Source of the DNA: Candidatus Omnitrophota bacterium | Lineage (GTDB): Bacteria > Omnitrophota > Gorgyraeia > Tantalellales > Tantalellaceae | Length of the DNA: 64,000 bases | Direction of reading: 5' to 3' | Assembly: GCA_014728045.1 (NCBI GenBank) | Contig: WJMH01000006.1 | Location: 52,738 to 116,737, forward strand | Shown here: piece after piece, positions 49,526 to 64,000 of the stretch | How positions within the stretch are numbered: the first letter of the stretch is position 1 | How the letters are laid out: each line of letters starts with the position of its first letter | Position numbers and translations under genes: made by a program | The notes under the pieces: generated by a model | The model's database searches: none | What the model saw: the letters and a program-made list of their open reading frames with translations, nothing else | What the model was told of the DNA's origin: nothing

Positions 49526-52500
49526 TTAGAGCGACCTGAGTATCTCATCCTGAGCAGCCTTCCAGTCGCGAATCTGCTCGTAATCAACAGGCCGTATCCT
49601 CAGTTCTACCAGGCCATCCAGGATCTTATCCAGTATATCCGGGTCCTTATCAAGATCTATCGCGGAGGGATCGGTTACCAGCGCCTTGATCAGGGCAACT
49701 AGGCGTTTCTCAGCTTCCGGGGTGAACAGGTCCGTCTGCTTGAACCTTTCATAATTCAAAAGGGCTTTACCCAGCACAACATGCATGACCTCGTCCACCG
49801 CCCCGTCATCGGGTATACCTCCCACCCTCACGACGACTACCCTTTCTGCCAGGCCTTCAAGCTCCATATCCCTGAGGGTCTCATCCAGAAGGTCCTCCAC
49901 CAGTGAATAGCGTTCCGCCGGAGCGTATATTATGGCCCTCGGCATTTTGTCCGAGTACTCCGGACGTGTCATGTTCTCAAGGAACTTTTCGAAAACTTCT
50001 CTGAGATTGGCTTTAAGCGCCCGGTCGGTCATATCCGCCCGGTAGGCATATCCGTCAGTGATGGTCTCCGAACCGTATTTTCTGCGGAAGAGCCTGGCGG
50101 CGCTACTGTCTACCGAAGGCTTTGCCGACATCATCATACGTTCATTGGCCGGGGTCACTATCCAGTCGACGACCCCCGCGAAAAAGTCCTCGACAGCATC
50201 TTTCGCGGCATTGATCTGGGCCTTTCCTGAACGGGCGTTTTCGCCTACAGCTTCCATGTCCTGCCGGGAATAAACTTCTGTGAAGCCATGTGCGGCTTCC
50301 TGTGAAAGACTGAGATTATGAAGAAGAAGGATGTATTCAGCGGCGACAGTATCCGGGATGATGCCGTATTCCATATCATCGAATGAACGTACGTTCACAA
50401 GGTCCACCCTGAAAGCCCTCTGGGCATCTTCAGTTACAACGAACTGCCCCAGGTGCATATCACCGGCGATCATCCCGTGTGTGTGCAGGGTTTTAAGCGT
50501 CCGCCCCACCGCTCTTCCAAGTTCCGCAAGACGCGCCTTCTCTCCGGAGTCCTGGAGGTCCAAAAGGCGCTTCTGTGCATTATTGCCTATCCAATCCGAC
50601 ATGAAAGGTATAAGAGAAGTATAAAGAAGCGTCCTGAATTCATCCCGGTCCGCGCCGAGTTCGGAAGCGGCACGATCATAATCTCCCAGATCGTTCAGTT
50701 CAACAAGCTCGAAAAGCCCCTCTTCAGCGCCTCTTCTGAGAAGGCTTATCGTCCCGGCTGGAAGCTCTTCCTCGCTCTTGCGTTCTATGTTAGGGCCTCT
50801 TTTCCACATGGTGGTCATCGGCAGATAAACCTTTCTTACCGGCGGGACCACCATCGTGCCATCTGGATTACGCAGGCGTAAAAGCTCCAGGTAGTTCCTT
50901 ATGATCCTCTCATCGGGCGCGATACCTCTCATATGGACGGCCTCCTGCTCATATTCCATCGGGTACCCGCGCCCCAGGATCATCGCGCTGAATGGTTCAG
51001 TAATTATAGGCGAGACGGCGCCTTCTGCGGGTACGGCCGTTATGGCTTCTTCAGGAGGACCGCGTCGTTCTTCGACCTTCGCAAGGTACGAACCAAGACT
51101 CTTCATGAAAAGCTCCGAAAATGGCATAAGAGCGGGCATCATCTCCTCGGTCGTCCCGGAAAAACTGACACCCATCGGATAAAGCACGTTCCGGAACCCT
51201 CCTCTATAATTGAAATCGGAGAAGATCCCAGCCATCGCCTGCGGATCCTTCCGTTCGATCGGGCTGTAATGGTCGTAGACCTCCTTCAAAAGTTCAATAC
51301 CCTGACCTTCCGCCAGGTCGGGATTCTCGGCCACGGCCTCAAAGATAAAATGATTGTTCTCAGGTTCTCCGCCGATAGTGGGTTTACCGGTCTCGTCCTC
51401 GGTCTTCTCAAATAATCCGTACTGTGCCATTAAAGTGGCGAGAAAGATCATTTTATGCCTTGCCCTAGCTCCTTTTTTCTCTATATTTTCCGCGGCTTTA
51501 CCTGTAACATGAAGCCTCCGGTTGCCTATATCCACCATTACCACTTCGCCGTTATCCCGCACCACAAAGTTGCCGCCGTGTATATCAAGAGGTACGTACC
51601 CGTTAAGTCCTACCGCTATGGAAAGAAGCACCTCCACTATTTTCTTTCTCATGTTCAGCGTAAGCTTCCCTTCCCTGGCAAGCTGGGTGGCGGTCTTGCC
51701 CTCGATGAATTCTTCAGTGAACCACTTTTTACCGTTCCATGTCCTGGTCGCGCCGAACCGTGGCACTACCTGTTCCCGGCCCTCCTGAAGCTGGTCGAGT
51801 TCCCTTATCTCCGTGAACGCTATATCACCTACAAGCTTTTCGGTCTTTGTAGCAACGGCCATAGTATAGGTCCGGGCCTTGTCCGGAGAAGAGAATTCTA
51901 TCCTGAAAACATGTTTATTGCTTCCCTCCAGATGATCGGTGATATAAACATCCTTGCCGATATCCCCGAAATCGAGATTCTCGTTCCCGGAGATCTTCCT
52001 TAACTCGTCCACTAGTTTATTCCTGGTAAGGCCTTCCAGATAATCTTTGGCCATCATCGCCAGGTCCATGTATCTTTCCATTTCCTCGGGGGTCTGCGTG
52101 TCGGGATCGGCACCGGTTATCAATACATTCATCTCAGCGCCTACATAACGGCCCCTGTAAAGATCTGCCACATCTTCCATATCCAGCCTTATCAGGTCGC
52201 CCTCACCCTGCCTGAGCATGAAGGACCTCTCCTGTCCGGTCCCGACCCGGTAGCATATGACTATCCTGTCATCGGCGCCGGTACTATCGCGCCTGTAGCG
52301 TATGAAATCCCTCAGGCCTCTTGCGGCAAGCTCCGGGTCCATATCCTGGGCTTCCCACGCCTCAGATGGCACCCTTTCTTTGAGTATGCTGGCGATCTGC
52401 TCCGTCTTGATCTTTTCGGTGAGAGCCCTGTCCATAAATGGAAAGACCTCCCTCTGAAAAGCCCTTAGAAGGTAATGGGGGTTCGCCGGGTCTTTCATTG

Positions 52501-64000: not shown

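Follow-up and report, generated by a model that had tools for sequence, protein, structure and literature searches.

What kind of protein is encoded when one bacterial reading frame of more than 14 kb strings together protein kinase and protease-like motifs, and do its kinases lie inside or outside the cell? This question is raised by a gene on the reverse strand of a Candidatus Omnitrophota genome (NCBI GenBank assembly GCA_014728045.1, contig WJMH01000006.1, positions 52,738 to 116,737); the whole 64,000-nucleotide stretch that was analysed is called the window here. Omnitrophota are ultra-small and largely uncultured, and a predatory or episymbiotic way of life is presumed to depend on their giant genes. 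An initial annotation, made from the sequence alone, had described the product of this gene as an "extraordinary and undescribed" stacking of kinases and proteases in a single membrane protein. Sequence comparisons indicate that it belongs to a family of Omnitrophota proteins in which one conserved N-terminal and one conserved C-terminal domain enclose a variable series of enzyme-like modules.

The gene and its family

The gene had been listed as an open reading frame (ORF) at 49526..63916 (-), with 4,796 amino acids (aa) counted from a TTG codon. Translation of 49526..64000 (-) gave 4,824 sense codons and a sole stop at the end, in agreement with the initial annotation, according to which the frame stays open for 28 codons from this TTG to the window edge. 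With residues 2381-3320 as query, exhaustive HMMER retrieved a 100% identical protein with a full length of 5,012 aa, designated P0021 (other relatives are likewise given P or L numbers). It corresponds to NCBI MBD3425871.1, deposited as "MAG: protein kinase [Candidatus Omnitrophica bacterium]" on a 128-kb contig, and its residues 189-5012 (96% of the protein) are an exact match to the window translation. Window residue n is P0021 residue n+188, and positions are given in window numbering unless P0021 is named. The upstream extension recommended in the initial annotation is provided by this protein: the true start lies outside the window, as had been supposed, and the "larger still" gene is longer by 188 codons (564 nt) only. 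Judged from the similarity to relatives, which reaches the first window codon, the TTG at 63916 is not the true start. The part of P0021 outside the window opens with MKIRFVEKYKLLKKAVALVVILAFFNNFILSDAWA/ALEEQ and comprises a Lys-rich n-region, a hydrophobic core and an A-x-A site. Read by inspection, this is a typical, putative Sec signal peptide, and the relatives begin likewise.

The window protein was compared with its closest fetched relative, L005 (ENA metagenome ERZ23498358, scaffold_5934; 54-70% identical). Over 2,469 aligned codons, differences at codon positions 1, 2 and 3 numbered 802, 574 and 1,490 respectively, and 784 of 1,403 identical residues are encoded by different codons. 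Because third-position differences dominate, the comparison indicates purifying selection along the gene length and a frame that is truly coding. Fragment-against-self BLAST detected no internal duplication other than that of kinase 1 and kinase 2. When two interior queries (aa 1180-2400 and 2230-3320) were submitted to a word-index protein search, nothing was returned; exhaustive HMMER gave the identical protein and 120 relatives. The empty word-index result is thus a false negative due to search sensitivity and no sign of orphan status. Together, we regard it as highly probable that the locus holds a single genuine Candidatus Omnitrophota gene with the anatomy and family assignment described here.

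The first of the two conserved ends, which we call bookends, is an N-terminal domain of about 600 aa in full, with a fold common to the EreA/ChaN/TIKI/TraB superfamily. It contains two conserved motifs, HIQDAHCN and (L/M)TGGFH, both situated at strand ends, which we take to be where this superfamily puts its GxxH motifs. The HIQDAHCN motif, like the signal peptide, lies within the first 188 aa, outside the window. No Pfam family matched the N-domain, either of the window protein or of its relatives. The second bookend is a C-terminal orphan domain which is 29-44% identical to the C-termini of P0003, P0133, P0142, P0050, P0025, P0044 and others. It is predicted, with low confidence, to be alpha/beta, and has neither a Pfam family nor, as an alignment profile, a PDB sequence match. 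The extreme end ...[IV]L[RQK][SA][LV]-COOH is found in 12 of 12 complete members (EILRSL at 49529..49546 in the window), suggesting a recognised tail that could act as a sorting, secretion or protease-recognition signal.

The complete proteins P0003, P0002, P0006 and P0012 show what remains when nothing else is present. These base forms of about 890 aa consist of a signal peptide, the N-domain and the C-domain, and such cargo-less proteins are the commonest members of the family. In alignments of P0003 and P0002, P0021 aa 19-651 are followed immediately by aa 4773-5012, with nothing between. Since the base forms join the N- and C-domain directly, the N/C junction of the window protein is taken up by about 4,100 aa. 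Both ends recur in a dozen or more Omnitrophota proteins of 1,600-5,800 aa, which combine the same modules and others in their own choice and order; in P0133, P0142, P0096, P0050, P0025, P0027 and P0044 both ends are kept and the interiors differ (Table 1). From the base forms of 890 aa the family extends to about 5,800 aa, and a single chain may contain as many as four Hanks kinases and three CPBP modules. Relatives of the first 400 window residues were found in Omnitrophota only. All named N-domain matches and all named members of the 10 clusters that were looked up are Candidatus Omnitrophica/Omnitrophota, about 110 other HMMER matches being without names; judged on its named relatives, the family is restricted to Omnitrophota. 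The initial annotation had missed the bookends, the EreA/ChaN/TIKI-like character of the putatively exported N-domain, and the modular build of this family.

The cargo of the window protein, that is the modules between the two bookends, begins with membrane HExxH-1, Hanks kinase 1, the M50B-like module, a segment of about 320 aa without assignment, a transmembrane (TM) anchor with the zincin-like HExxH-2, and HExxH-3. It continues with the transglutaminase (TGase)-like domain, the CPBP module, atypical kinase 3, Hanks kinase 2, and atypical kinases 4 and 5. The same order is found in L005, which comes from an independent assembly, and in P0022. The L005 orthologue is split into two ORFs of 490 and 2,473 aa (2796..4268 and 4387..11805) by an apparent frameshift within its GGFHTENL motif, which may be an assembly error or a genuine disruption. 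In most expanded members (P0133, P0142, P0025, P0028 and P0004) a CPBP module directly follows the N-domain and is preceded by G-[TS]-A-V-T-x-W-L-K-R-x-T-P; in P0133, three CPBP modules alternate with Hanks kinases.

Table 1. Features of the giant gene in the window, from N- to C-terminus, followed by expanded relatives of its product
Feature	Window coordinates	Strand	Residues or length	Remarks
Giant gene	49526..64000	(-)	4,824 codons in the window	Stop at 49526-49528; first 188 codons beyond position 64000
N-terminal bookend domain	62591..64000	(-)	aa 1-470 (P0021 aa 189-~660)	EreA/ChaN/TIKI/TraB-like fold with large helical insert; MTGGFHTENL at aa ~292
Membrane module 1 (HExxH-1)	61565..61975	(-)	aa 676-812	Two or three hydrophobic helices; HESVH 770 in loop before the last
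Hanks-type Ser/Thr kinase 1	60479..61327	(-)	aa 892-1174	GKGGFG, IAIK, QEY, HADLKPEN 1028, DFG 1047, TPEY; Pfam PF00069
M50B-like, putatively intramembrane HExxH module	59786..60148	(-)	aa 1285-1405	STPFHELGH (HELGH 1306) in predicted first helix; conserved Asn; terminal GRGDLA
TM anchor and soluble HExxH-2 module	57896..58804	(-)	Anchor aa 1733-1751	HEASH 1914, then EEEN; no Pfam match
Soluble HExxH-3 module	57221..57895	(-)	aa 2036-2260	MGIAHEISHELTGR; HEISH 2181
TGase-like (papain-fold) Cys-His-Asp domain, predicted	56321..56848	(-)	aa 2385-2560	GVCRH 2472-2476, GHGF, LDVAQ
CPBP (Rce1/Abi)-like four-helix membrane module	55106..55603	(-)	aa 2800-2965	EEALYR 2840, FVLDH, NHSIAN
Atypical kinase-fold module 3	54311..55105	(-)	aa 2966-3230	GRGDFNSVFRV, YDLKGSNFV, IVDAG; ABC1 E 0.017, 14.7 bits
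Hanks-type Ser/Thr kinase 2	53345..54013	(-)	aa 3330-3552	GAGGFG, VAVK, NEY, HCDIKPNN 3455, DFG 3474; Pfam PF00069
Atypical kinase-fold module 4	50996..52033	(-)	aa 3990-4335	DIHGGNFVV, VDIG; ABC1 21.9 bits against 22.9, E 1.1e-4
Atypical kinase-fold module 5	50321..50995	(-)	aa 4336-4560	GDMHLGQFVV, RVDL; WaaY stretch aa 4498-4529
C-terminal bookend domain	49529..50278	(-)	aa 4575-4824	~240-aa orphan domain; end ...DWKAAQDEILRSL-COOH
P0133			4,720 aa	Four Hanks kinases, three CPBP modules, one atypical kinase
P0142			3,601 aa	Two Hanks kinases, one CPBP module, two atypical kinases
P0096			2,547 aa	Hanks-kinase matches at two places, one CPBP module
P0050			3,858 aa	M50B-like module, HExxH-2
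P0025/P0152			~3,370 aa	Source name histidine kinase/GGDEF
P0027			5,782 aa	CPBP module, atypical-kinase-like stretch (among interior parts examined)
P0044			5,699 aa	Two CPBP modules (among interior parts examined)
P0143			3,957 aa	N-domain, HExxH-2, TGase-like region, M50B-like module; no C-domain match found
L002 member (L002_1635)			1,635 aa	Kinase-like modules
L003 member (L003_1963)			1,963 aa	HATPase_c
L003 member, more distant			2,328 aa	B12/radical-SAM/aldo-keto-reductase

Enzyme-like modules of the interior

All motifs quoted in the initial annotation were present, and each is conserved in relatives. Its two Hanks kinases, its TGase-like Cys-His-Asp core and its three further HEXXH motifs hold, the last without a family assignment. 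Its three APH/ABC1-like kinase folds, its M50-like intramembrane HELGH and its CPBP-like module were borne out by residue conservation but not by hidden Markov model (HMM) scores, which fell under the cut-offs. The domain HMM check that it had proposed was firm for the kinases; most protease assignments consist of sub-threshold scores and motif conservation, with no family-level match.

Pfam PF00069 (Pkinase) matched two stretches of the window protein (E 4e-82, 276 bits against a cut-off of 31.7) and NCBIfam kinase models concur over the catalytic core of both. The two kinases are 35% identical to each other. Each possesses the G-loop, the beta3 Lys, the alphaC Glu, HxD-x-K-P-x-N and DFG, and both are of the non-RD type (HAD and HCD). 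Across L005, P0022 and P0016, the VAIK-type Lys, HxD and DFG, whose conservation the initial annotation had wished to see checked, are retained except for DLG and NKD in P0016. On the Pfam match, the presence of two Hanks kinases is certain, and their catalytic residues are intact.

The TGase-like domain was the only other module to reach a Pfam cut-off. When aa 2381-2560 were scanned in isolation, PF04473 (DUF553) scored 21.6 bits against a cut-off of 20.5; in longer contexts its score was under the cut-off (15.2-19.6 bits), as was that of PF01841 (17 against 23). The Cys-His-Asp triad occurs in order in 61 aligned homologues, where no variation is seen at G, E, H and D and V-C-R-H is conserved to 90% or more, and the core is about 90% identical to L005 over aa 2433-2530, the best-conserved stretch of the protein. 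A PDB sequence profile search with this alignment gave nothing significant. The homologues are mostly small (200-450 aa) and 6 of the 61 carry an FHA (phosphothreonine-binding) domain, which points to a domain family tied to Ser/Thr kinase signalling elsewhere.

The CPBP module scored 11.4 bits with the Rce1-like family PF02517, far under the cut-off of 22.4. This was nonetheless the only recurrent family in an alignment of 16 CPBP sequences (26-46% identical), 12 of the 16 relatives matching it at E<=1 with a best value of 2.9e-4. Columns without any variation in the alignment are an Ala and both Glu of EExxxR, Phe and His of FxxxH, and His and Asn of HxxxN (columns E60, E61, F103, H107, H153 and N157); the Arg is found in 14 of 16. 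An AlphaFold2 (AF2) model, with a predicted local distance difference test (pLDDT) score above 90 in the core, consists of four long helices with the motifs on helices 1, 2 and 4. Foldseek found no match to this model in the PDB, and a PDB sequence profile search with the alignment gave nothing significant. The best structural match of the model is APH-1, a non-catalytic subunit with the CPBP fold.

For the M50B-like module, PF13398 reached 21.6 bits (E 1.9e-4) against a cut-off of 26. Sub-threshold matches to M50/M50B (E 0.01-0.1) were also obtained with P0050 and with the L005/P0022 orthologue, in which the matching 181-aa and 140-aa stretches belong to one gene, and none with P0143. STPxHExxH, the Asn and a terminal GxGD[LI]A do not vary among the five rows of the alignment. 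As L005 and P0022 are near-identical over this stretch and were counted as one, these rows stand for four independent proteins (P0021, L005/P0022, P0050 and P0143). In M50 proteases the third zinc ligand is provided by an LDG motif, of which the GxGD found here would be a candidate equivalent.

Four HExxH motifs were observed in the window protein against 0.07 expected from its composition, and none of 5,000 shuffles reached three. Apart from that of the M50B-like module, they are found at residues 770, 1914 and 2181, in modules for which Pfam scans revealed no recurrent family. HExxH-1 is retained as HERVH in L005 and HEARH in P0016; its only Pfam signal is a faint match to DUF3267, a "putative zincin" (E 0.05-0.12). 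P0143 (HESSH) and P0050 (HEELH) keep HExxH-2 as well as the EE[ND] that follows it. The HExxH-2 module (aa 1770-2033) is cleanly missing from the 54-61% identical orthologues L005 and P0022, and this module-sized indel between close relatives fits a cassette-like gain or loss. HExxH-3, conserved as HELSH in L005/P0022, has neither a Pfam nor a PDB sequence match. PDB sequence searches with raw segments as queries produced no significant match.

Modules 3, 4 and 5 all scored under the curated HMM cut-offs of the ABC1/UbiB, APH and Kdo/WaaY families. Module 4 matched UbiB with E 2.5e-8, at 32.9 bits against a cut-off of 487, and module 5, when scanned alone, matched WaaY at 17.9 bits against 20.3. 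Fifteen relatives of module 3 were found, and module 4 is 31-44% identical to modules of L002_1635, P0142, P0133 and P0025. In an alignment of 16 sequences (modules 3-5, 11 relatives and two L002_1635 modules), conservation of 90% or more is seen both for the Asp of the catalytic loop and for the metal Asp further downstream. The catalytic loop reads D-x-[KH]-x-x-N, with Gln for Asn in module 5; the beta3 Lys was not confidently placed.

Possible mechanism and alternative readings

We favour a reading in which the window protein would be a membrane-embedded, multi-enzyme signalling and processing polyprotein. Its putatively exported N-domain and its membrane modules would hold the polyprotein in the envelope; the chain has several clusters of hydrophobic helices. 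The kinase modules would phosphorylate Ser/Thr residues on partners or on the polyprotein itself, and the protease-like modules would cut the polyprotein into separate working units or cut membrane-proximal substrates. For Omnitrophota giant proteins in general, autoproteolytic processing has been proposed (bioRxiv 10.1101/2023.11.21.568195; 10.64898/2026.06.07.730766). If the protease modules do cut the chain, the gene would encode a Ser/Thr signalling system packaged as a bacterial polyprotein. We infer this self-processing mechanism in its entirety and put it forward tentatively, as something that may well turn out otherwise. Taken as a blend of anatomy, family and mechanism, the reading is the best explanation overall and a reasonably probable one.

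Several observations weigh against it. Among the non-kinase modules, only the TGase-like domain reaches its Pfam cut-off, by 1 bit and scanned alone; the M50B, Rce1-like, ABC1 and WaaY scores are all under theirs, and HExxH-1, -2 and -3 match no family. Apart from the signal peptide, no hydrophobic segment occurs in the base forms or in some cargo-bearing relatives (L002_1635 and L003_1963). In P0133, P0142, P0096 and P0025, the CPBP modules are the only membrane segments. Because the helix count of the modelled CPBP module is even, these four proteins would have their Hanks kinases on the side of the exported N-domain, which is strange for enzymes that need ATP. This leaves two options: a misreading, be it of the helix count or of the signal peptide, or a cargo whose site of action is outside the cytoplasm of the producer. 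Signal peptides and helix counts were read by inspection, from a hydropathy scan and from one AF2 model, no dedicated predictor being used. The window protein has extra membrane modules, whose helix counts are uncertain.

The second option leads to an alternative that we hold to be rather unlikely, namely that of a delivered array of effectors built on a logic like that of MARTX toxins. The N- and C-domains would export or deliver and anchor the chain, the interchangeable interior cargo would act outside the producer's cytoplasm, on or in prey or host, and the proteases would release it. Classic Sec signal peptides, as read by inspection in all members, are consistent with this, as are the base forms, L002_1635 and L003_1963, from which kinase-like and HATPase cargo would be exported whole. 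So are the Hanks kinases that the four-helix CPBP model places on the N-domain side in the four relatives named above, the conserved ends around variable cargo, the strictly conserved extreme C-terminus and the N-domain fold, which is common to the type III effector HopBA1 and the MARTX effector RRSP. Moreover, Omnitrophota are reported to be predatory or episymbiotic and their giant proteins to be implicated in attack (bioRxiv 10.1101/2023.11.21.568195; 10.64898/2026.06.07.730766). However, relatives also carry enzymes of an ordinary cytoplasmic type as cargo (radical SAM/B12, aldo-keto reductase, GNAT and GGDEF), and modules of the intramembrane-protease type normally act in the producer's own membrane. 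Pfam and NCBIfam scans of the window revealed neither RTX repeats nor a CPD domain, and no type I secretion genes next to the giant gene. Unlike the situation in MARTX toxins, cargo-less base forms are the commonest members, and the signal peptides and helix counts are those read as described above. If the cargo were exported, the family would represent a new effector-delivery design, like MARTX in logic and unrelated to it.

In a more general form, which we consider quite unlikely, the signal peptide and EreA/ChaN/TIKI-like N-domain together with the ...LRSL C-domain would be a generic carrier that exports and displays interchangeable enzyme cargo, or injects it. The Hanks kinases and protease modules of the window protein would in that case act on a prey or host cell, outside the cytoplasm of the producer. 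The even-helix CPBP modules would then be membrane staples or release devices.

It is also conceivable, though improbable in our judgement, that only the Hanks kinases are enzymatic and that the HExxH, CPBP-, M50B- and TGase-like segments are the relics of dead proteases, catalysis having been lost or never present, that serve as membrane anchors or structural spacers of a multi-kinase scaffold. The M50B, Rce1-like and ABC1 scores under curated cut-offs, the three HExxH modules without a family, the non-catalytic APH-1 as best structural match of the CPBP model and the Gln in the catalytic loop of module 5 could all be explained in this way. By contrast, the residues that stay invariant among sequences only 26-46% identical are the catalytic ones (EE, F..H and H..N in CPBP; C, H and D in the TGase-like domain; HExxH, N and GD in the M50B-like module), every copy of the over-represented HExxH motif is kept in relatives, and the TGase core is the most conserved block with respect to L005. 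Lastly, that the gene is a chimeric assembly, or decayed genes read through by chance, as its origin from a metagenome-assembled genome and the split L005 orthologue might suggest, is exceedingly improbable and was ruled out by the codon-position statistics over 2,469 codons and by independent assemblies, the module order recurring in L005 and P0022 and the same ends enclosing large interiors in many others, besides which a stop-free frame of 4,824 codons at 52% GC is impossible by chance.

Known systems and genomic setting

Very long, membrane-associated multi-enzyme proteins are a described trait of Omnitrophota (West-Roberts et al. 2023, bioRxiv 10.1101/2023.11.21.568195; Nielsen & Lui 2026, bioRxiv 10.64898/2026.06.07.730766). 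The same reports relate that one polypeptide tiles unrelated enzyme domains, suspected self-cutting proteases and large stretches without Pfam match, and that a signal peptide with TM helices occurs in 39% of catalogued long proteins, all of which resembles the window protein. The closest categories there are the "multi-enzyme" class and the signal-transduction Pfam module (Nielsen & Lui 2026, bioRxiv 10.64898/2026.06.07.730766). Unlike these giants, the window protein, with 5,012 aa, is below the catalogue thresholds of >=10,000 and >=30,000 aa, and a Pfam scan found in it no SecA-DEAD, C39, S8, dockerin or glycosyl hydrolase/transferase domain. An "Archaeovorin" or dockerin-type giant (West-Roberts 2023; >=30,000 aa, SecA-DEAD-like, C39/S8) was rejected on this size and on the absence of matches to those Pfam families.

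The window protein is thus a small example of the described multi-enzyme giants of the phylum. With its sequence already deposited as MBD3425871.1 and at least a dozen kindred Omnitrophota proteins, the stacking called undescribed in the initial annotation is less exceptional than first claimed. The portions of West-Roberts et al. 2023 and Nielsen & Lui 2026 available to us do not describe the bookend family, its EreA/ChaN/TIKI-like N-domain or the recurrence of CPBP, M50B-like, TGase and atypical-kinase modules and their occurrence alongside several Hanks kinases. A full-text literature search on giant transmembrane protein kinases in Omnitrophota returned no paper. What the family adds is a simple building rule for part of the giant-gene repertoire, in which enzyme modules are placed and reshuffled at a single junction between an exported N-domain and a C-domain that stay the same. 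Bookends and modules are defined units whose conserved catalytic residues can be mutated, and the members of 890 to about 5,800 aa make up a comparison set.

With receptor kinases of the PknB/Stk1 type, the window protein has in common PF00069 and NF033483 matches over the catalytic core, the kept G-loop, Lys, Glu, catalytic loop and DFG, and a tether to the membrane. It differs from them in having two non-RD kinases (HAD and HCD) in one 5,012-aa multi-module chain and in lacking PASTA or other known sensor domains. The PknB_PASTA model scored 213 bits against a cut-off of 450; this score and the missing PASTA domains ruled out a PknB-type receptor kinase.

MARTX and polymorphic toxins, in which delivery arms enclose exchangeable effector domains and a cysteine protease performs self-processing, are comparable in that conserved ends flank variable, shuffled enzymatic modules, in their Cys-His-Asp and metalloprotease-like modules, and in an N-domain fold related to RRSP. 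The window protein differs by the absence of RTX or glycine-rich repeats and of an inositol-hexakisphosphate-activated CPD (Pfam/NCBIfam), by metabolic neighbours with no adjacent type I secretion system, and by intramembrane-type modules in its interior. Tested for these defining features and found without them, it was rejected as a MARTX protein, the resemblance being one of logic only.

As in the CPBP/Rce1/Abi superfamily (PF02517, including APH-1 and S. aureus SpdC), EExxxR, FxxxH and HxxxN are invariant on a four-helix core. In contrast to that superfamily, the module is here internal to giant proteins, with up to three copies per chain (P0133), follows a G-T-A-V-T-x-W-L-K-R motif and scores far under the Pfam cut-off. 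Likewise, the N-domain is similar to EreA/ChaN/TIKI/TraB proteins in its His-containing motifs (HIQDAH and GGFH) at beta-strand ends, but is split by a helical insertion of about 300 aa and has no sequence-level Pfam match. Within this fold, ChaN binds a ligand, and TIKI, EreA and RRSP are hydrolases.

The window itself is an ordinary stretch of bacterial chromosome with about 51% GC and uniform skew. Neighbouring genes encode an aldo-keto reductase, a GH1 protein, a FabG-type reductase, a ketoacyl synthase, an acyl-CoA dehydrogenase, ETF alpha and beta, SMC and a GGDEF protein. No conserved neighbour gene that could belong to a secretion or partner system is common to the flanks of the window gene and those of L001, L002, L003 and L005.

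Another giant ORF is located at 15371..30331 (-). It encodes 4,986 aa, has a hydrophobic anchor at the N-terminus, some 10 hydrophobic segments in all and a pair of HATPase_c-type domains, and occupies a slot between SMC and a conserved five-gene block; in the related metagenome locus L003, this slot contains two bookend-family genes. Its product and those of orf883 and orf543, which have similar-looking C-terminal tails, were considered as carriers of the bookend domains and rejected, no match being obtained by N-/C-domain HMMs or phmmer. Three ORFs at 41636..44287 (-), 44353..45984 (-) and 48932..49414 (-) encode proteins of 883, 543 and 160 aa with N-terminal hydrophobic, signal-like segments and no Pfam match. 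The last of them lies directly downstream of the giant gene on the same strand.

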